A stretch of DNA of 64,000 bases from Solirubrobacterales bacterium (lineage in GTDB: Bacteria > Actinomycetota > Thermoleophilia > Solirubrobacterales > JACPNS01). Position numbers and translations under genes: made by a program. Of the stretch, positions 22,615 through 43,478 are shown piece after piece (position 1 is the first letter of the stretch; every line of letters begins with the position of its first letter). The stretch is from assembly GCA_051306435.1 (NCBI GenBank), contig JBPPNF010000047.1, positions 145 to 64,144 of the forward strand, given 5' to 3'. The notes below the pieces were generated by a model, which saw nothing but the letters and a program-made list of their open reading frames with translations, was not told the DNA's origin and did no database searches.

Positions 22615-22839
22615 CTATCGACGGCGGCGGCGAAGGCCCTTGAGCACTATCGAACTGCCGATCAGAAAGCCGATCGCGGCGGCGCCGACCGTCAGTTCCT
22701 GTTTGTGGTCGACGATGTGCTGTCGCCAGTCGGTGATGCGCGCAACTTCGGTGCGCGCGGAGTTGACTGACTGGACGAGTTGCTGGCGGTTGTCCTCGAT
22801 CGAGGCACGAATCTCGGCGGGGGTGCGCTGCTGGGCCAT
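22615..22839 (-). CDS. DUF3618-like small protein with C-terminal TM anchor
   Basis: 74 aa. TPAEIRASIEDNRQQLVQSV helix, then one TM helix and an RRRRR tail, as in DUF3618 proteins. Confidence 0.55.
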   Translation of the reverse strand: MAQQRTPAEIRASIEDNRQQLVQSVNSARTEVARITDWRQHIVDHKQELTVGAAAIGFLIGSSIVLKGLRRRRR

Positions 22840-24893: not shown

Positions 24894-25616
24894 CTAACCG
24901 TCTTGACGACGCCGAAGCTCCGCGACCAGCAGCTTCACATGCATGGCGCTGAGCAGATCTCGCATCGGTCCGTGCCCACGTTCAATCAGATCCGCAGCGT
25001 CATCGGCCGAGAGTTTGCCGGGCAGCTTCTCGGAGATCACGTCGACCTCGTCGCGCGCGAGGGCCTCGAGGTGGCGCATGTAGATCAGGGTGTCGTAGAT
25101 CGTGAAGCCGAGGGCTTCGCCGTAGCCGCTCTTGCGGAACCCGGAGATTGCTGTGAGGAACTCGGCATCGGGTTGGCTGTAGCGGACGCCGGCCTTGGTC
25201 TCATGCGGCTCAATCGCGCCGATGCGCTCGAATCCGTTGAGCACGTCCTCGGGCAGATCAAGCTTGGTCACCGCCTGCTTGCGCGTGATGCCCTTTCCGC
25301 TCGCGATCGCCTGTGAGCGCTGGAGCAGCACGTCGCCGAGCTCAAGCCGCGCCTCGACCTGATCGGGCTCGTTCTCGAGGATTCGCTTGATCACGTCGAG
25401 CGGCAGGTAGCGCTCTTCCTGAAGTCGCTTGATCAGCTTGATCCGGTCGACATACTCGGGCGAGTACCAGGCCATGTTGCGGCTGGTCTTGACCGGCGCG
25501 GGCAGCAGACCTTCGCGCAGGTAATGCTTGATCGTCGCGGCGGAGACTCCGCTCTGCTCGGCGAGCGCGGCCATGCGCAGGAGGCCGTCGGTGCTCGGCG
25601 TGGTGGTCCGGGTCAC
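24894..25616 (-). CDS. MerR family transcriptional regulator
   Basis: 240 aa. N-terminal HTH MAALAEQSGVSAATIKHYLREGLLP, followed by a long helical effector/dimerisation region. Its start overlaps the CoA-transferase stop by 4 nt. Confidence 0.8.
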   Translation of the reverse strand: MTRTTTPSTDGLLRMAALAEQSGVSAATIKHYLREGLLPAPVKTSRNMAWYSPEYVDRIKLIKRLQEERYLPLDVIKRILENEPDQVEARLELGDVLLQRSQAIASGKGITRKQAVTKLDLPEDVLNGFERIGAIEPHETKAGVRYSQPDAEFLTAISGFRKSGYGEALGFTIYDTLIYMRHLEALARDEVDVISEKLPGKLSADDAADLIERGHGPMRDLLSAMHVKLLVAELRRRQDG

Positions 25617-26833
25617 GACGTGGGGACTCCTGCCACGCCGGCGACGGCGCCAGATTCACGTAGCGAGGCGATTTCCTCGGCTGAGTATCCGATCGACTCA
25701 AGAACGGCATCCGTGTGCTCGCCGAATCCCGGTGCGGGCTCGCGACGGTCCGGGCGCGCGCCATCGATCACGAACGGCGGTGCGAGCTGGCCGACGGGAC
25801 CAATGCCCGGCTGGTCGACCTCAGTGACCATGCCGCGGGCCTTGACGAGATCAGATTCAAGCGCTTCGTCGATGCCCAGCACAGGTTCGATGCAGCAGTC
25901 GTGCTCGTCGTTGAAAGCGGCCCACTCCGCGCGGGTCTTCGTTTTGAAGACTTCTGCGATCACGCCCCAGCCGTCGCTGCCGGCGAGTTCGAACTGCTTC
26001 TCGATCAGATCCTCACGACCGACGCCGCGCGCGAACGCCTGCCAGAACTTCGGCTCGAGCGCTCCGCAGCTGACCCAGCCATCGGCGGCTTCATAAGGCA
26101 TGTAACAAACCCATTTGCCTGCGAGGTCGACGTCGCCGCGTTCTCGGGCGTCGCCGGCCAGCGCGGCGGCGGCCGGCATTGCCAGCCAGCTCAAAGCGCC
26201 ATCAGTCATTGAGATGTCGATTTCTGCGCCGATGCCCGTGGCGTTCTTCCTGACCAGAACGGCGAGGATCGCGATCGCGGCCATCTGCGCGCCGCCGCCG
26301 ATGTCGGCGATCTGGCCTGCGGCCTGAACCGGCGGGCCGCCCTTCGCTCCGGTCAGACCGAGCAGACCGTTCAGGCCGAGGTAATTCATGTCGTGTCCGG
26401 CGCGCAGGGTGAACGGGCCGTCCTGGCCGTATCCAGTGATCGCGCAGTAGATGACGCCCGGATTCACGGTCTTCATCTGGTCATATCCGACGTTCAGCTT
26501 GTCGAGCACGCCGGGACGAAAGGACTCAAGCACCACGTCGTGGTCGGCGACGAGCTTCAGGAGAATCTCTTTGCCGTCGTTCGACTTGAGGTCGAGCTGG
26601 ATCGACTGCTTGTTGCGGTTGAGCGCGTCGAACTGGACGCTGTGCGTGCCGCTCGCCTTTGCCGCTTCGCCGCCGGCATACGGAGTCGTCCAGCGCATGT
26701 AATCGCCCGCTCCGGTGTCTTCGACCTTCAGCACCTCTGCGCCGAGGTCGGCGAGAAGCAGTGAGCAGAACGGTCCGGGGAGCAGGCGCGAGAGGTCGAG
26801 GACTTTGACGCCCTTCAGCGGAAGATCAGACAT
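25613..26833 (-). CDS. family III CoA-transferase (CaiB/BaiF/racemase family)
   Basis: Start at ATG 26833 (MSDLPLKGVKVLDLSRLLPGPFCSLLLADLGAEVLKVE, the canonical family III N-terminus). 406 aa. Confidence 0.85.
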   Translation of the reverse strand: MSDLPLKGVKVLDLSRLLPGPFCSLLLADLGAEVLKVEDTGAGDYMRWTTPYAGGEAAKASGTHSVQFDALNRNKQSIQLDLKSNDGKEILLKLVADHDVVLESFRPGVLDKLNVGYDQMKTVNPGVIYCAITGYGQDGPFTLRAGHDMNYLGLNGLLGLTGAKGGPPVQAAGQIADIGGGAQMAAIAILAVLVRKNATGIGAEIDISMTDGALSWLAMPAAAALAGDARERGDVDLAGKWVCYMPYEAADGWVSCGALEPKFWQAFARGVGREDLIEKQFELAGSDGWGVIAEVFKTKTRAEWAAFNDEHDCCIEPVLGIDEALESDLVKARGMVTEVDQPGIGPVGQLAPPFVIDGARPDRREPAPGFGEHTDAVLESIGYSAEEIASLRESGAVAGVAGVPTS

Positions 26834-27719
26834 TGCGCGGCACTCCAAGCAGTTCGCGGGCTTCGGCGATCGTCGCGACCTTGCGGCCACCGGCCTCGAT
26901 CTGGCGCGCGGCTTCCTCGCAGAGGTCGCCGTTGCCCTTGCAGACGTCGCCGTTGGGCAGATAGAAGTTGTCTTCCAGACCAACACGGACGTTGCCGCCT
27001 TCGGCGATCGCGACGGGAACCAGATCCCACTGCTCGCGCGAGACGCCGACCATGCCCCAGTTGTTCACGCCATCGCCGCCGTGCCCGCCGGGCTGCGGAA
27101 CCTGACTCGCCATGTGCTTGAGGTTCTCCGGGCGCGCCGGGGTACCGCCAAGTACTCCCGTCACGAGCGAGATCTGCAGCGGCGACTCGAGAATTCCCAT
27201 GTCGATCAGCGGCTCGAGCGAGGCCAGGTGCCCCAGCTCGAAGCACTCGTGCTCGGGGCGGATGCCGTATTCGTTCATCGCAGTCAGGAACTGGATGATC
27301 GTGTCGAAGCTGTTCTCGAAGATGAAGCCGAAGATGAACTCTTTGCGACGCTTGGAGTACTTCGCATAGTTCATCGAGCCCATGTTCAGGGCCGCGATGT
27401 CGGGGCGGATCGCCTCGAGATACTCGAGGCGCTTCTCTACGGAGAGGCCGACCGCGCCGGTCGAGAAGTTGATGATCACGTCGCCGCATTCGGCCTTGAT
27501 CGCGTCGGTGATCTCGCGGTAATTCTCAATCTCGAAGCTCGGCGTTCCGTCGTGCTTGCGCGCGTGGATGTGGATCATCGCCGCGCCGGCGTCGACCGCG
27601 CTGCGCGCTTCGGCTGCGTACTCCTCCGGCGTATAGGGAATTGCCGGGTGTTGCTCCTTGTTGGCAACCACTCCGCTGATCGAGTTGGTGAGGATGCACG
27701 GCTTGTCAAATCCCGACAT
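26826..27719 (-). CDS. beta-keto acid cleavage enzyme family protein (BKACE/DUF849)
   Basis: Start at ATG 27719. PCILTNSISGV, IPYTPEEYAAEARSAVDAGAAMIHIHAR and RVGLEDN match the Kce-like TIM-barrel family with its Zn-binding HxH. Overlaps the CoA-transferase start by 8 nt. Confidence 0.8.
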   Translation of the reverse strand: MSGFDKPCILTNSISGVVANKEQHPAIPYTPEEYAAEARSAVDAGAAMIHIHARKHDGTPSFEIENYREITDAIKAECGDVIINFSTGAVGLSVEKRLEYLEAIRPDIAALNMGSMNYAKYSKRRKEFIFGFIFENSFDTIIQFLTAMNEYGIRPEHECFELGHLASLEPLIDMGILESPLQISLVTGVLGGTPARPENLKHMASQVPQPGGHGGDGVNNWGMVGVSREQWDLVPVAIAEGGNVRVGLEDNFYLPNGDVCKGNGDLCEEAARQIEAGGRKVATIAEARELLGVPRNV

Positions 27720-27732
27720 CAAGCGCTCCTTT

Positions 27733-27755
27733 GCTGCGCACCTCAGGTGTGCAAC
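27733..27755. promoter_or_regulatory. box 1: GCTGCGCACC-TCA-GGTGTGCAAC
   Basis: 10-3-10 inverted repeat with 2 arm mismatches. Lies 13 nt upstream of the BKACE start codon. Confidence 0.6.
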
Positions 27756-27796
27756 GAGAATTGTCAATGAAAAATGGCTTGTTCAAGGGGGTTGTT

Positions 27797-27819
27797 GCTG
27801 CACACCTCTGGTGAGCAGC
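27797..27819. promoter_or_regulatory. box 2: GCTGCACACC-TCT-GGTGAGCAGC
   Basis: 10-3-10 inverted repeat with 1 arm mismatch. Confidence 0.6.
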
Positions 27820-27889
27820 AGTTTGGCCATGGCCTGCTTCGCGGAGGCGGCCGTACGGCTGGTCGGTTGCGACCGCGGAGCCAAAACCC

Positions 27890-27912
27890 GCTGCACACCG
27901 GAGGTGTGCAGC
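27890..27912. promoter_or_regulatory. box 3: GCTGCACACC-GGA-GGTGTGCAGC
   Basis: Perfect 10-3-10 inverted repeat. Confidence 0.65.
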
Positions 27913-27953
27913 ACCGGACCGCATACCTAAGCCATTCTTGGCCGCAGGATCGT

Positions 27954-27976
27954 CCAGTTCACCAGAGGTGTGCAGC
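27954..27976. promoter_or_regulatory. box 4: CCAGTTCACC-AGA-GGTGTGCAGC (degenerate left arm)
   Basis: The right arm is identical to consensus. The left arm is degenerate (4 of 10 positions differ from consensus). Lies 16 nt downstream of the carboxyltransferase stop. Confidence 0.5.
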
Positions 27977-27992
27977 AGATAATCAAATCCGC

Positions 27993-29573
27993 TCATACAG
28001 GCATCACTCCGTGCTTCTTGTCCGGGCGGTCGACGTGCTTGTTCTCGGCCATCTCGAGGGCGCGGATGATGTGGTGGCGCGTCTCGCGTGGGTCGATCAC
28101 GTCGTCGATCATGCCGTTGCCGGCTGCGAGGTAGACGTCGATCATCTTCTGGGCCTCGGCGAGCAGTTCCTCGCGTTTGGCCTCGGGGTCCTCGGCGGCT
28201 TCGATGATCGAGCGACCGATGATGTTCACCGCGCCTTCGGCACCCATCACGCTGATCTCGGCGGTCGGCCATGCGTAGATTGCGTCCGGCTCATAGCCCG
28301 AGCCGTTCATCACGTAGTAGCCAGCGCCGTAACACTTGCGGATCAGGATCGTGACCTTCGGGACCGTCGCACGCGAGGTCGCGTACAAGAACTTCGCGCC
28401 GTGGCGGATGATCCCGGCCTCCTCGACCTTGCTGCCGACCATGAATCCGGGAACGTCCTGGAGATAGATCAGCGGGATTCCATACGCGTCGCAGAGGTTG
28501 ATGAAGCGTGCGGCCTTGTCGGCGGAGTCGTTGTCGAGGATTCCGCCCAGGTGCTTGGGCTGGTTTGCGACGATGCCGACGCTGCGGCCGTCCATCCGCG
28601 CGAAGCAGGTGATGATCGACTTCGCCCACTTCCCCTTCATGTCGAAGTACTCACCGTCGTCGACGATGTGCTTGATGATCTCGTACATGTCGTAGGGCTG
28701 CCGGCTGCTCTCGGGCAGGATGCTGAGCAGCTCTTCCGCGTGGCGGTTGACCGGGTCCTCGGTCGCCTTGATCGGCGGCTTCTCGCCGCTGTGCATCGGC
28801 ATGTAGGAGAGGTAGTCCTTGATCGACTGGATGCACTCGGCGTCGTCGCCACACTCCATGTCGGCGACGCCGCTCTTGCGGTTGTGAACCTTGTAGCCAC
28901 CGATCTCTTCGTCGGTGACGTCCTCGCCGGTTGCGGCCTTGACGAGGTGCGATCCGGCCAGCGCCATCGAGCCCTGGCCCTTGACCATCGGCAGAAAGTC
29001 GGTGAGCGCCGGGACATACGCGGTGCCGGCCGCGCACGGCCCCATGACTGCCGCGACCTGCGGGATGACCCCGCTCATCGTCACCTGTTCGCGGAAGAGG
29101 TGACCGGAGCCGGCGAACAACGATCCGACCGCTTCCTGAATGCGCGCGCCAGCCGAGTCGAGCAGCCAGATCATCGGCATGCGCTTGTTCAGGGCGAGTG
29201 CGCGCAGGCGGGAAAGCTTGACCTCGCCGGTGTAGCCCATCGATCCCGCCATCACGGTGAAGTCGTAGGCACCGACGCAGACCAGGCGGCCGTTGACCCG
29301 GCCGTAGCCGGTGATGACGCCGTCGGCCGGGGCGTCCACGCCCGCGAGCGCGCGCTGCGAGAAGTGCGGGCGCCCGTGCAGGCCGAACTCGACCCAGGTT
29401 CCTTCGTCGATCAACAGCTCGACGCGCTCGCGCGCCGTGAGCTTTCCACGCTCGTGCTGCTTGGCGATCTTTGCGTCGCCGCCGCCCTTGAGGTTGTGTT
29501 CGCGCTTGGCGAGCAGCTCATCGACGAGCTCCTCCATCTGCGACTTCAATTGAGTTGCTTCAGCGTCGTTCAT
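27993..29573 (-). CDS. acyl-CoA carboxylase carboxyltransferase (beta) subunit
   Basis: 526 aa. ERGKLTARERVELLIDEGTW, DGVITGYGRVNGR, YDFTVMAGSMG, DSAGARIQE and MGPCAAGTAYVPALTDF match the PccB/AccD carboxyl-transferase pattern. Confidence 0.85.
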   Translation of the reverse strand: MNDAEATQLKSQMEELVDELLAKREHNLKGGGDAKIAKQHERGKLTARERVELLIDEGTWVEFGLHGRPHFSQRALAGVDAPADGVITGYGRVNGRLVCVGAYDFTVMAGSMGYTGEVKLSRLRALALNKRMPMIWLLDSAGARIQEAVGSLFAGSGHLFREQVTMSGVIPQVAAVMGPCAAGTAYVPALTDFLPMVKGQGSMALAGSHLVKAATGEDVTDEEIGGYKVHNRKSGVADMECGDDAECIQSIKDYLSYMPMHSGEKPPIKATEDPVNRHAEELLSILPESSRQPYDMYEIIKHIVDDGEYFDMKGKWAKSIITCFARMDGRSVGIVANQPKHLGGILDNDSADKAARFINLCDAYGIPLIYLQDVPGFMVGSKVEEAGIIRHGAKFLYATSRATVPKVTILIRKCYGAGYYVMNGSGYEPDAIYAWPTAEISVMGAEGAVNIIGRSIIEAAEDPEAKREELLAEAQKMIDVYLAAGNGMIDDVIDPRETRHHIIRALEMAENKHVDRPDKKHGVMPV

Positions 29574-31215: not shown

Positions 31216-31289
31216 GGCTGGCGACTCTACCGGAGGGGGTTGATTGGTAGGTTGCGCCGGTAACGGCAAGATTCTTCCGGGGAGAGCAC

Positions 31290-39261: not shown

Positions 39262-39298
39262 AAAAGGCCCTTCCGCTCGCGCGGGAGGGCCTTTTTCT
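39262..39298 (+). terminator. intrinsic terminator after the SDR gene
   Basis: AAAAGGCCCTTCCGC-TCGC-GCGGGAGGGCCTTTTT followed by CTTG. GC-rich stem plus T-run. Confidence 0.8.
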
Positions 39299-41018: not shown

Positions 41019-42500
41019 TCACGCGCCGGGCGTTCCTCGCCCGCGCACACTGTTGACCGTCGCCGCCCACTCGTCGAGCAGCCCGGCACGGCGGGATTCT
41101 GACATCTGTGGTTCGAAACGATACTGCTCCCGCCAGAGCGACTCCACTTCGGCGGCCGTCCAGCTGCCGGCGGTGATGCCGGCCATCATTCCCGCGCCGA
41201 ATCCAGTCGTCTCGGTGATCTCCGGCACAACGACCGGCACGCCGAGCACGTCGGCCTGGAACTGCATCAGCCAGTGGTTTGCGACTGCGCCGCCGTCGGC
41301 GTGCAGCTCGTCGAGCGGCAGCCCGGCCGCGCGCTCCATCGCGCGCACCGCGTCCACCGTCTGGAACGCCATCGCCTCGAGCGCGGCTCGGGCCAGGTGC
41401 GCGCGCGTGGTGCCGCGGGTCAGTCCCATGATCGCGCCGCGCGCGTCCGGGTCCCAGTAGGGCGATCCGAGTCCGGTCAGCGCCGGCACGAAGTACACGC
41501 CGTCGTTCGAGTCGAGCGAGCGCGCCAGCGTCTCGGTCTCAGCCGCATTTGGCAGCAGGCCCAGCCCGTCACGCAGCCACTGCACCGCTGCACCCGACAC
41601 GAACACGCTCGCCTCGTAAGCGTAGGTGGCGGTTTCAGCGGTGCCCCAGGCAAGCGTGCCGATCAGCCCGTCGGCCGGCACCGGCGCGCCGTCGCCGACG
41701 TTCAGCAGCACGAAGCTGCCGGTGCCGTAAGTGTTCTTCGCCTTGCCCGGCGAGAAGCACGCCTGACCGAACAGCGCCGCCTGCTGATCGCCCGCCATGC
41801 CGGCGAGCGGGATCGAGGCACCGCCGAACAGGCCGGGATCGGTCTCGCCGAAGACGCTGAGCGAAGGCTGCACCTTTGGCAACGACGCCGGGTCCACGCC
41901 GAAAAGCTCGCAGAGCTCCAGCGACCACTCGAGCTTGTTGATGTCGAAGAGCATCGTGCGCGCGGCGTTCGAGTAGTCGGTCACGTGGTGGCCCGTGAGT
42001 TTGAACGCGAGCCACGAATCGATCGTCCCGAAGCAGATCTCCGCAGCCGGGCGAGCTGCGAGACCTTCCACGTTCTGCAGCAGCCACTCGATCTTCGTCG
42101 CGGAGAAGTAGGGATCGATCGTCAGACCGGTCTGCTCGCGCACCAGCTGCGAGTGGCCGTCTTCCACCAACGCGCGGCAGCGGTCGGCGGTGCGGCGATC
42201 CTGCCAGACGATCGCGTGGTGCAACGGCTCGCCGCTCGCGCGATCCCACGCCACGACGGTCTCGCGTTGGTTGGTGATCCCGAGTCCCTTGAGATCGCTG
42301 GCCCGGGCTCCGGCGGCCGCGAGCACCTCGGCGGCGACTCCGCTTGTGACGTTCCAGATCTCGTTGGCGTCGTGTTCGACCCAACCCGGATGCGGGAAGT
42401 GCTGCGTGAACTCGTGCTGGCGCGATGCGACGATCCGGCCGTCGTCGCCGAGCAGCATCGCTTTGCTGCCCGTCGTGCCCTCGTCGAGCGCGAGGATCAC
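41019..42500 (-). CDS. glpK: glycerol kinase
   Basis: 493 aa. ILALDEGTTGSK, GITNQRETVVAWD, YFSATKIEWLL and GDQQAALFGQ are canonical GlpK (FGGY family) blocks. Confidence 0.92.
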   Translation of the reverse strand: MILALDEGTTGSKAMLLGDDGRIVASRQHEFTQHFPHPGWVEHDANEIWNVTSGVAAEVLAAAGARASDLKGLGITNQRETVVAWDRASGEPLHHAIVWQDRRTADRCRALVEDGHSQLVREQTGLTIDPYFSATKIEWLLQNVEGLAARPAAEICFGTIDSWLAFKLTGHHVTDYSNAARTMLFDINKLEWSLELCELFGVDPASLPKVQPSLSVFGETDPGLFGGASIPLAGMAGDQQAALFGQACFSPGKAKNTYGTGSFVLLNVGDGAPVPADGLIGTLAWGTAETATYAYEASVFVSGAAVQWLRDGLGLLPNAAETETLARSLDSNDGVYFVPALTGLGSPYWDPDARGAIMGLTRGTTRAHLARAALEAMAFQTVDAVRAMERAAGLPLDELHADGGAVANHWLMQFQADVLGVPVVVPEITETTGFGAGMMAGITAGSWTAAEVESLWREQYRFEPQMSESRRAGLLDEWAATVNSVRGRGTPGA

Positions 42501-43204
42501 GTGCGCGGCTCTCTGGTTTCGCGGTACACCTTGAGGAAGTCTTTCAGTTGGCGGCCGCGGTGGACGAAGCCGGCGAGCGACCTGCCGGTCGCGCGGTGCG
42601 CGAGGTCGAGCTCGATCTCCTTCACCCGCAGGCCGGCGCGAACTGCGTCGATCGTCATCCCGATCTCCATGCCGAAGGCCGCGTGGAAAGGCGTCACAGC
42701 GTCGAGCGCGTCGTATGTGATCGCGCGCTGGCCAGAGATCGGCGCGCGGGTGTCAAGCCCACAGCGGCGCAGAATCGCCTTGTGCGCAAAGCCGAGCGCA
42801 AGTCCGAACCCGCCACCGACGCGACTGGCGAAGATCGCCACCGTGAGATCGGCCTCGCCTGCCGCCACGGCCTCTGCCAGTGGCGCCAGGCGGGCGGCCG
42901 AGCGGGCGAGGTCCGCGTCGGCGAGCAGGACTACGGCCGAGTCACTCGGTGCGCCGTCGGCCAGAACGCGCGCCGCTGCGAGCGACGCCGCACCACCTTT
43001 GCCCAGATGGGTGGGCCCACCGACCACCGTCGCGCCGGCCTCGCGCGCCACGTCGCCGGTCGCGTCCGCTGAACCGTCGTCGGCAACGACAACAGTCGTG
43101 CCCGGAAAAGCCTCGTGCAGCGCCGCGACAGTCTCGGCGACATGGTCGGCCTCGTTGCGCGCGGCGACGATCACGTGGCCGACCAGGATGTGTTCGTCCG
43201 CCAT
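42497..43204 (-). CDS. GT-A fold glycosyltransferase, glucosyl-3-phosphoglycerate-synthase-like
   Basis: 235 aa. The order AARNEA...VVVADDGSADAT...GKGGA...LADADL...GGGFG...PISGQRA...FGMEIGMTIDA follows the pattern I recall for GpgS/GT81-type enzymes, but the protein is shorter. Its stop overlaps the glpK start by 4 nt. Confidence 0.55.
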   Translation of the reverse strand: MADEHILVGHVIVAARNEADHVAETVAALHEAFPGTTVVVADDGSADATGDVAREAGATVVGGPTHLGKGGAASLAAARVLADGAPSDSAVVLLADADLARSAARLAPLAEAVAAGEADLTVAIFASRVGGGFGLALGFAHKAILRRCGLDTRAPISGQRAITYDALDAVTPFHAAFGMEIGMTIDAVRAGLRVKEIELDLAHRATGRSLAGFVHRGRQLKDFLKVYRETREPRT

Positions 43205-43265
43205 CAGGGACGATATGTTGTCAGGCGGCTACGACGATCTCCAAACACCCCGACCAAGAGGCGAA

Positions 43266-43478
43266 ATGAGCGACATAGAGGCACACATCACCGGCACCGT
43301 CTGGAAGATAGAGGTAAAGCCCGGCGACAGCATCGAAGAGGGCGACACCGTCGTGATCCTCGAGTCGATGAAGATGGAGATGCCGGTCGAAGCCGAAGAC
43401 GACGGCGTCGTCAAAGAGATCAAATGCGCCGAAGGCCAGTCGGTCCACGAAGGTGACGTGCTCGTAGTTCTCGAATAG
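43266..43478 (+). CDS. small biotin/lipoyl-attachment protein (stand-alone BCCP-like)
   Basis: 70 aa, embedded in a spurious 734-aa track ORF. Biotinylation motif ESMKME at the hairpin tip. The size matches the small actinobacterial biotinylated proteins (TB7.3 type). Confidence 0.8.
   Translation: MSDIEAHITGTVWKIEVKPGDSIEEGDTVVILESMKMEMPVEAEDDGVVKEIKCAEGQSVHEGDVLVVLE

Follow-up and report, generated by a model that had tools for sequence, protein, structure and literature searches.

A variable palindromic array spanned by an open reading frame at a former ATGA overlap in a Solirubrobacterales operon

The operon junction and its palindromic array

We analyzed a 64,000-nucleotide stretch of DNA from a Solirubrobacterales bacterium (GenBank assembly GCA_051306435.1, contig JBPPNF010000047.1, positions 145 to 64,144), wherein a 244-bp palindromic array (27733–27976) separates two genes of a minus-strand operon. 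Hereafter, "the window" denotes this whole 64-kb stretch and "the array" denotes the 244-bp element. The upstream gene (27993..29573, minus strand) encodes a carboxyltransferase (Pfam Carboxyl_trans, E=1e-165) and ends with the stop codon TGA at 27995–27993, whereas the downstream gene (26826..27719, minus strand) encodes a BKACE (DUF849) protein (Pfam BKACE, E=6e-90) whose ATG occupies 27719–27717. A first-pass annotation of this DNA had named these two genes as well as a gene for a MerR-family regulator two genes downstream, and all three assignments were confirmed by Pfam. The gap between the carboxyltransferase stop and the BKACE ATG (27720–27992) measures 273 nt, also as claimed. At its upstream edge, an ATG (27996–27994) overlaps the carboxyltransferase stop codon to give the sequence ATGA (27996–27993, minus strand).

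The array comprises four 23-bp palindromic boxes with 10-bp arms separated by 3 bp (10-3-10), which were found exactly where they had been reported, at 27733, 27797, 27890, and 27954, with the same start-to-start spacings of 64, 93, and 64 nt. The quality assigned to each box likewise holds. Box 3 (27890–27912) is a perfect palindrome of the form GCTGCACACC-GGA-GGTGTGCAGC, box 2 (27797–27819) carries one arm mismatch, and box 1 (27733–27755) carries two. Box 4 (27954–27976) retains a single arm, the other having decayed in the window. The two-fold symmetry described about 27854/55 is also present, in that 64% of positions over 87 nt agree when the left half of the array is aligned with the right half in reverse complement. 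The longest inverted repeat detected in the array has 55-nt arms that match at 73%. Both the spacer motif AATGGCTT and the GTTT(T)GGC box flanks noted previously can be recognized.

We regard the repeated unit as a module of ~64 nt, consisting of a 41-nt spacer and a 23-bp palindrome. The layout in the window is therefore two 87-nt inverted arms of two modules each, arranged around a 70-nt center (27820..27889). The left-arm spacer (27913..27953) contains AAGAATGGCTT and is an inverted copy of the right-arm spacer (27756..27796), which carries the motif CCCTTGAACAAGCCATTTTTC. The center includes the short palindrome GCCGTACGGC (27850–27859), with which the midpoint of the symmetry coincides.

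The same junction in related lineages

The best BKACE homologues (95% identity or less) derive from soil metagenomes and from metagenome-assembled genomes labeled Solirubrobacterales or Thermoleophilaceae. We compared the junction in 13 close lineages of uncultured Solirubrobacterales whose BKACE proteins are 87–95% identical, and found that the array is a lineage-variable insertion into a former ATGA overlap. Six lineages (L098, L093/94, L096/97, L100, L119, and L120) have no gap at all, and in these the carboxyltransferase TGA overlaps the BKACE ATG within the sequence ...GGAGTGATGCCnGTATGAGyGGnTTyGA.... The same –4 overlap occurs in distant relatives at 57–65% identity, and therefore the ATGA overlap represents the ancestral state. 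One of the empty-site lineages, L098, shares 95% BKACE identity and is the sister of the clade that includes the window (100% bootstrap).

Traces of the ancestral junction persist on both sides of the array. The sequence ATGAGCGGATTTGA (27983..27996, minus strand) matches the empty-site junctions GTATGAG(C/T)GGnTT(T/C)GA and is a remnant of the ancestral BKACE 5′ end. The ancestral BKACE Shine–Dalgarno sequence, GGAG (28007..28010, minus strand), remains within the 3′ end of the carboxyltransferase gene, 10 nt upstream of the ATGA, and the corresponding GGAGTGATGCCnGTATGA was found in every empty-site relative. The relocated BKACE gene has a new Shine–Dalgarno sequence, AAGGAG (27726..27731, minus strand), supplied by the right end of the insert, and all insert-bearing relatives carry one of their own at the corresponding position. 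The second codon of BKACE is a TCN serine codon in the window (TCG), L105, L095, and L092, compared with AGC or AGT at all empty sites.

Box arrays are present in five lineages (the window, L105, L095, L092, and L099) and range from four to at least seven boxes. Their modules exhibit 63–86% mutual identity in either orientation and share the spacer motif CCCTTGAACAAG(S)(S)nTTTTC; the right-arm motif CCCTTGAACAAGCCATTTTTC is common to the window, L105, L095, and L092. In L095, a 432-nt gap holds six good boxes and a degenerate one of the variant ACTGCGCACC-N3-GGTGCGCAGT, spaced 45–90 nt apart, plus another palindrome. L092 and L099 retain at least one box each, their contigs breaking ~40 nt upstream of the last box and within the array. 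These breaks (L092 1–81 and L099 1–83) occur in two independent assemblies, which suggests that both arrays include longer repeats, identical or inverted, across which short reads cannot be assembled. The BKACE-proximal module of L099 (1–66) is 84% identical to the reverse complement of the left-arm module of L105 (1662–1724) and is closer to it than to the right-arm module, which hints at conversion or inversion between arms within an array.

L105, an independent metagenome contig, has the same four-box layout and the same 41/70/41 spacers, and thus the array is not an assembly artifact. Its arms are 88 nt long and 78% complementary, box 4 is intact, and boxes 2 and 3 are exact reverse complements. 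Between the window and L105, boxes 1 to 3 are each 91% identical, as opposed to 66% at carboxyltransferase 4-fold sites, and the 41-nt spacers are 73–78% identical (73% for the left-arm spacer). The 70-nt center has the same length in both lineages and yet is only 40% identical, again versus 66% at the 4-fold sites, and it exhibits no significant structure (fold z-score of –0.64). The arms of the array are thus conserved, and the center is not. The first-pass annotation had noted a fifth palindrome, GCCGTACGGC, exactly at the symmetry center. This sequence does sit there, but the lack of conservation of the center in L105 indicates that it is incidental rather than part of a constrained design.

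Other lineages have filled the junction differently. L101–104 carry a 34-nt insert without boxes, and L090/91 carry a 112-nt insert with an unrelated hairpin that has a 20-bp stem. The latter (L090 9923–9969, also in L091) is a perfect hairpin of the form GCCGCATGCCCTGTCCATGC-N7-GCATGGACAGGGCATGCGGC in a relative at 89% identity, and a search of 21 kb revealed no second copy of it. Another hairpin, unrelated to these and with a 17-bp stem, is located in the 73-nt gap of a distant relative (L064 9934–9972). In bootstrapped neighbor-joining trees of the flanking genes (~1.5 kb), the window, L105, and L099 form a clade with 100% support, while L092 and L095 are placed elsewhere among deep nodes that are poorly resolved.

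An open reading frame across the array

The array is not an untranslated gap, because a single open reading frame (ORF) spans all of it. This bridging ORF (27706..27996, minus strand) comprises 96 codons plus a stop, runs from the ATG of the ATGA to a TGA at 27708–27706, and includes all four boxes. It is the sole stop-free frame of six in the window, and its stop codon lies 11 nt beyond the first base of the BKACE ATG, creating a 14-nt overlap. The ORF makes use of the old BKACE initiation site (GGAG-N10-ATGA), such that the ancestral Shine–Dalgarno sequence now serves the bridging ORF, and its product would begin with MSGFD, as BKACE does.

Equivalent frames exist in the other lineages. The L105 bridging ORF has 97 codons and was called by JGI as a hypothetical protein (P0121). 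In L095, the ORF has 149 codons, is again the sole open frame, and ends at the same TGA; the old and new ATGs lie 277 nt apart in the window and 436 nt apart in L095, and each of these distances equals 1 mod 3. The bridging frame is open to the contig end in L092 and L099, stopping 2 nt before the start codon in the former and overlapping it in the latter. Even L090 and L101, whose inserts are unrelated, have an ORF (39 and 13 codons, respectively) that starts at the ATGA and ends exactly in an ATGA or GTGA on the BKACE start, and the L090 hairpin lies within this frame.

We extended the survey to relatives at 57–66% BKACE identity among the matches listed by a metagenome search, none of which has boxes. 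In total, a bridging ORF is present in 15 of 16 gaps of 34–432 nt at this junction in Thermoleophilia. Relative to dinucleotide shuffles given a random length class, this excess has a Poisson-binomial probability of 2e-12, or of 4e-10 when obvious relatives are dropped (13 of 14). Short gaps of the distant relatives contain, in 10 of 12 instances, an ORF that extends from an NTGA on the carboxyltransferase stop to an NTGA on the BKACE start. Two more ORFs end no more than 8 nt from the BKACE start (at –7 and +8), and one gap has no bridging ORF and also no overlapping start codon. The distant loci with bridging ORFs are L027, L042, L048, L054, L060, L064, L065, L083, L084, and L087, with gaps of 49–205 nt. 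Their predicted peptides are 18–70 codons long and mutually unrelated; the L064 hairpin noted above lies within a 26-codon bridging ORF.

Larger gaps (457–997 nt) hold real genes with –4 overlaps at both ends. Those of 457–568 nt (L010, L012, L018, L023, and others) encode a PNPOx-like protein of ~158–191 aa, and those of 949–997 nt (L014, L016, and L045) encode a Zn-dependent (alcohol) dehydrogenase of ~320–334 aa. L011 and L013 have an odd ORF of 160–164 codons without a Pfam match. The junction seems to have accepted extra cistrons repeatedly.

An alternative is that the 96-codon ORF is itself a real small-protein gene, for example one encoding a peptide rich in His and Cys (AAHxRCAA), or what remains of a decayed gene once located between the two enzyme genes. 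The L105 ORF called by JGI is 55–57% identical to the window ORF, and genes with –4/–4 overlaps at the junction of distant relatives (the PNPOx-like protein of 158 aa and the Zn-dependent alcohol dehydrogenase of 334 aa) provide a precedent. However, substitutions between the window and L105 ORFs are distributed over the three codon positions as 28/19/32, without the third-position bias that is evident in the carboxyltransferase gene, where 4%/2%/27% of sites differ. On this pattern we rejected a small His/Cys peptide. Moreover, the boxes are read in three different frames of the bridging ORF, and the conservation of the peptide merely follows from that of the DNA palindromes. In L095, the ORF has another length and another sequence. 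No significant similarity of the ORF to the PNPOx-like or Zn-dehydrogenase genes sandwiched at the junction was detected, and a remnant of either was rejected on this basis. The bridging ORF has no Pfam match, and searches with the translated arrays (the window ORF, the L095 ORF, and a two-ORF profile) against 5.8 billion and 1.84 billion proteins, the latter a representative set, recovered only P0121 from the same locus and a spurious repeat protein (P0122). We consider a functional or remnant gene to be highly improbable. Judging from these comparisons, the bridging ORF is not a protein under selection, its peptide being unconserved and only the openness of the frame being kept.

Folding, further copies, and the nature of the array

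RNA hairpins predicted for boxes 1 to 3 have stabilities of –12.7, –14.9, and –19.0 kcal/mol, respectively, compared with only –3.3 kcal/mol for the decayed box 4, and the whole gap folds with a z-score of –5.3. Box 1 ends 1 nt from the BKACE Shine–Dalgarno sequence, and in the predicted fold its stem extends such that UUCU pairs with AGGA of this site. An RNAalifold model of the window and L105 yields a hairpin formed by the whole element, in which pairing joins box 4 to box 1, the two spacers to each other, and box 3 to box 2, including one A-U to G-C compensation between boxes 3 and 2. Two stem positions of the boxes alternate between G:C and A:T across lineages. Note that uncompensated G·U and A·C states on the sense strand are equally common (three boxes each), and therefore the dyad symmetry is a DNA-level property that bears no signature of the RNA strand. 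An Rfam scan of 26500–29000 at a permissive threshold returned only chance miRNA-like matches, which eliminates a known RNA family.

We also searched for further copies of the boxes, dozens of which, scattered in unrelated intergenic regions, had been named as the mark of a generic repetitive extragenic palindromic (REP)-like element. None was found in the rest of the window or in related loci totaling ~740 kb, either by mismatch scanning or with a covariance model. Specifically, the box pattern with up to three mismatches has no further sites in the window (0.00 expected from 100 dinucleotide shuffles), and a covariance model built from 16 boxes assigns the window boxes 26–36 bits and the next best window site 15 bits. 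A REP-like density of one copy per 10–15 kb is therefore excluded for the DNA examined. Among 185,579 species genomes, the exact 23-mer occurs nine times, once per genome, at single, unrelated, and mostly coding sites, none of which is homologous to the locus; one example is a Paenibacillus coding sequence for L-H-T-H-G-V-Q-L. This pattern represents only the ACACC variant and is too strict to detect the CTGCGCACC variant of L095, L092, and L099. In viral contigs, a degenerate box pattern yielded 13 isolated chance matches and no arrays. About 50 genes of the window were scanned with Pfam and proved to be ordinary chromosomal genes, with no transposase, no REP-associated tyrosine transposase (RAYT), and no cas genes among them.

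Two other features of the window may be mentioned. A box-like palindrome, GCGCGCACC-GAA-GTTGCGCGC (22735–22761, minus strand), is located in a small conserved ORF downstream of a holin-like gene. It has 17 consecutive bases in common with a box of L095 (9737). However, the box model gives it no more than 15 bits, and it is probably a chance occurrence. In addition, a 734-codon ORF (41274–43478, plus strand) matches only a C-terminal biotinyl/lipoyl domain, with no match at E<=1e-5 for its N-terminal 670 residues, and has an atypical GC content by codon position (0.74/0.57/0.74). This call may represent two merged genes or a wrong frame.

Given that a MerR gene belongs to the operon, the boxes had been proposed as a multisite operator for an oligomeric regulator. 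The operon is encoded entirely on the minus strand and consists of genes for two enoyl-CoA hydratases, the carboxyltransferase, BKACE (after the gap), a family III CoA-transferase, the MerR-family regulator (24894..25616; Pfam MerR_1), and a nitrilase-type hydrolase. If the boxes were operators for this protein or for another dimeric or oligomeric factor, they might control an internal promoter or act as a roadblock, and the perfect or near-perfect 10-3-10 dyads, spaced at 64 and 93 nt and thus near whole helical turns, would suit such a role. However, eight close lineages keep the operon and its MerR gene without boxes, six of them without any gap. Because the MerR gene is kept in relatives both with and without boxes, the proposal fails for this regulator, for which we found no link to the boxes. 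The number and spacing of boxes also vary between lineages (45–90 nt in L095). MerR operators are dyads within over-long –35/–10 spacers of 19–20 bp, and the boxes are not so placed. No promoter-like site was found in 27400–28300, and a TTGACA beside box 1 was rejected as an internal promoter because it has no –10 element and is not conserved in L105. The likely operon promoter is instead a –10-like TAGAGT (31224..31229, minus strand), located 8 nt upstream of the first enoyl-CoA hydratase ATG (31215) and conserved as TA(G/A)(A/G)(G/C/T)T across seven lineages, from which the transcript would likely be leaderless. The promoter region has no boxes and has a different conserved upstream motif, GCGCAACCTACCAAT, and the array sits 3.5 kb downstream of it, between two genes whose translation is presumably coupled. 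Several relatives conserve GCGCAAC(C/T)TACCAAT (window 31243–31257, minus strand) ~14 nt upstream of TAGAGT, and this sequence is a better candidate than the boxes for a site of a MerR-type regulator. An operator function for the boxes therefore has very little probability in our estimate.

Another proposal, that the boxes are intercistronic RNA stem-loops, agrees with their transcription within the operon and with predicted stabilities of up to –19 kcal/mol. A selected RNA device of this type could act independently of translation, as a barrier to 3′-exonucleases or a processing site that sets differential mRNA stability, or as a U-less terminator or attenuator. The fold of the gap, the conservation of the boxes above the neutral level, and the unrelated hairpins at the same junction in L090 and L064 are all in keeping with such a device, as is the terminator-like match formed by box 3 and the GGGUUUUGG that follows it. 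However, box 3 is the only box with even a partial tract of this kind, and L105 has AGGAUCCCGG in its place, which eliminates a conserved terminator. Furthermore, the hairpins lie inside the conserved open frame and therefore should be melted by ribosomes, six close lineages with the same operon lack them, and neither an RNA-strand signature nor an Rfam match is present. We judge this explanation to be improbable. Note that a canonical bidirectional terminator, AAAAGGCCCTTCCGC-TCGC-GCGGGAGGGCCTTTT, is present elsewhere in the window (39262–39295); this genome uses A/T-flanked hairpins, whereas the boxes have no conserved tract. A CRISPR array can also be rejected, since the repeats are fully palindromic and 70–100% alike, the spacers are related to one another as inverted copies, the period is irregular (45–93 nt), and the window has no cas genes.

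The proposal of a REP-like element or a miniature inverted-repeat transposable element (MITE) fared better: the inverted doublets of palindromic modules, the patchy presence, and the variable copy number all agree with it, although no scattered copies were found in the sequence examined. In its strongest form, this proposal holds that the array is a single member of a dispersed family of non-autonomous mobile elements, such as a REP or REP doublet (REPIN) moved by a RAYT, a MITE, or a relative of mycobacterial interspersed repetitive units (MIRUs), that is selfish and neutral, has inserted repeatedly, and has its other copies outside the window. Inverted doublets, nested arrays, variable copy number, and patchiness all match descriptions of REPINs (PMC3116915, PMC3337134). 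The L092 and L099 contigs break within the array, as assemblies do at repeats, and the window has a direct repeat resembling a target-site duplication (TSD). At a density typical of MIRUs, no second copy would be expected in the ~100 kb of sequence that derives from genomes with boxes. Nevertheless, no further copies emerged from the window, the related loci, or the covariance-model search, the exact 23-mer gave only its nine single unrelated matches (as the ACACC variant), the viral collection gave isolated chance matches, protein searches with the translated arrays returned the same locus only, and the window lacks a transposase or RAYT. The shared TCN codon of BKACE also suggests a single origin. 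A dispersed mobile family is therefore unlikely in our assessment. An insertion of the IS200/IS605 (palindrome-associated transposable element) type next to TTGAT is a further, purely putative candidate.

We favor the explanation that the array is a REPIN- or MITE-like series of palindromic modules, rather than an operator, that is tolerated within the ATGA junction because the bridging ORF preserves translational coupling, and we consider this to be probable. Gene overlaps of 4 nt are typically translationally coupled, and coupling drops quickly with distance (PMC12548453). It can occur either because a ribosome unfolds the structure around a downstream start or because the same ribosome re-initiates, and these RNA-unfolding and ribosome-scanning models have been reviewed (PMC12548453). 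An untranslated, hairpin-rich gap of 273 nt would break such coupling, and the bridging ORF would restore it. The array would be transcribed within the polycistronic mRNA, and ribosomes that finish the carboxyltransferase would restart on the bridging ORF from the old BKACE initiation site (GGAG-N10-ATGA), translating through the array and melting its hairpins in passage. If so, the array could be tolerated while BKACE remains tied to upstream translation. The ribosomes would terminate 14 nt inside the relocated BKACE gene, beside the new Shine–Dalgarno sequence that abuts the box 1 hairpin, and their arrival would deliver or expose the BKACE start. The hairpins may thereby gate BKACE initiation. 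Because only 1 nt separates box 1 from the Shine–Dalgarno sequence, part of which is paired in the predicted fold, initiation in array lineages should have a strict requirement for upstream translation, perhaps stricter than before the insertion. The bridging peptide itself would have no function, and conservation of the boxes may derive either from self-maintenance of the palindromes by conversion between arms or from selection.

Several observations weigh against this explanation. Translation of the bridging ORF is predicted from sequence statistics, and an open frame in the window considered by itself is unlikely to a modest degree only (P=0.044). The frame closes 11 nt beyond the BKACE ATG and not at a –4 overlap, and therefore a hand-over of ribosomes would need back-scanning or de novo initiation on an unfolded site. 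Covariation within the boxes, with 88.8% of cells paired versus 86.7% in shuffles, is too weak to serve as evidence of an RNA helix or of selection for hairpin stability, and mismatches such as the A·C in box 1 are conserved. Occurrence at a single locus in all sequence examined is odd for a mobile repeat. The TSD-like repeat is formed by ATGAGCGGATTTGA on the left and the present BKACE start ATGTCGGGATTTGA (27719–27706) on the right, 277 nt apart, 5 and 17 nt from the arms, and matching at 11 of 14 positions (8 nt consecutively); it occurs only in the window and is absent from L105. Finally, the shared TCN codon suggests that the filled allele arose once and was later lost or recombined, and argues against repeated insertion. 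The array itself may have originated by transposition, by local inverted duplication, or by recombination between strains.

Known systems resemble the array in part. MIRUs insert at start codons with a coupled ORF (Supply et al. 1997, as summarized in PMC12548453). Like MIRUs, the array is a repeat of Actinomycetota at an operon stop/start junction, with an ORF coupled to the flanking genes, expression that would be barely disturbed, and a variable copy number; the ORF runs from the ATGA on the carboxyltransferase stop to 14 nt into BKACE, with counterparts in L105, L095, L092, and L099. However, the ORFs of the box arrays (window, L105, and L095) end at a –14 overlap and not at –4. MIRUs are direct tandem repeats without strong dyad symmetry, present at ~40 loci per genome. 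Their units are 46–101 bp long, arranged head to tail, and variable in copy number between strains. The unit of the array is ~64 nt, with zero, four, or up to at least seven boxes in different lineages, but it carries perfect 10-3-10 palindromes and occurs in both orientations as nested inverted repeats, not purely head to tail. Furthermore, MIRUs are a sequence family of Mycobacterium dispersed at tens of loci per genome, and the array has been found so far at one locus in a Solirubrobacterales/Thermoleophilia host.

REPs, REPINs, and bacterial interspersed mosaic elements are similar in being GC-rich palindromes that form inverted doublets with a conserved spacer, are predicted to fold into long hairpins as ssDNA or mRNA, cluster between co-transcribed genes, and are distributed patchily (Bertels & Rainey 2011, PMC3116915; PMC3337134). 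The 23-bp boxes, with zero to two arm mismatches, resemble REP palindromes (~20–35 nt), and the inverted arms of box, 41 nt, and box (78% complementary in L105 and 64–73% in the window) resemble REPIN doublets. In contrast to REPINs, which reach tens to hundreds of copies per genome and are accompanied by a RAYT (an IS200/IS605-like enzyme whose gene often has the repeats on its flanks), the array has no second copy in the sequence examined, and no RAYT is encoded in the window. REPs are also extragenic and untranslated, whereas the array is inside a conserved open frame. In the manner of a MITE, it measures 244 bp, has inverted arms of 87–88 nt, and has neither a transposase nor coding capacity beyond the bridging ORF. 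Rickettsia palindromic elements (RPEs) and ORF-carrying MITEs are likewise palindromic DNA that is tolerated as translatable sequence with the peptide as a by-product (PMC10969869). Unlike RPEs, which insert in-frame and extend a host protein, the array is out of frame with BKACE (277 nt, 1 mod 3) and has a separate ORF. In phage f1 genes VII/IX and in MS2 coat-lysis, a hairpin near or over the downstream ribosome-binding site ties initiation to upstream translation, and coupling persists with a start upstream of the stop in the coat-lysis pairs of phages fr and MS2 (–38 and –50) (PMC12548453). There, a single hairpin is an integral and conserved part of the junction, whereas the present junction, which functions in sister lineages with no array, has gained a variable set of several hairpins.

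Two aspects are new, namely the joining of dyad modules like those of REPINs to a bridging ORF like that of MIRUs and the comparative evidence that an open frame is kept across every type of insert at one junction. The array could even be the first member seen of a family of palindromic, coupling-preserving repeats in Thermoleophilia that brings its own Shine–Dalgarno sequence and bridging frame and whose hairpins serve as an evolvable dial for translation ratios, but we regard this extension as speculative and doubtful. If true, such a family would be directed to overlapping stop/start junctions or be retained there. How many hairpins it has, and how strong they are, would set how strictly the downstream enzyme is translated and in what ratio to the upstream one, and the element would be a structural hybrid of REPIN and MIRU not described before. 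The locus also carries a caution, in that a symmetric set of palindromes near a regulator gene resembled an operator array until comparison with relatives showed otherwise.

With coupling kept as proposed, the natural variation at this locus would show selection protecting the hand-over of ribosomes between two operon genes. The frame stays open from the upstream stop to the downstream start whatever has been inserted, be it a real gene, short junk, or an array of four to seven hairpins. The MIRU principle, whereby a repeat is made harmless by a coupled ORF, would thus extend to a REPIN-like dyad repeat in a deep-branching, uncultured class of Actinomycetota. With empty, short-insert, and array alleles in otherwise near-identical operons, the locus offers a compact natural setting in which the RNA-unfolding and ribosome-scanning models of coupling can be tested.

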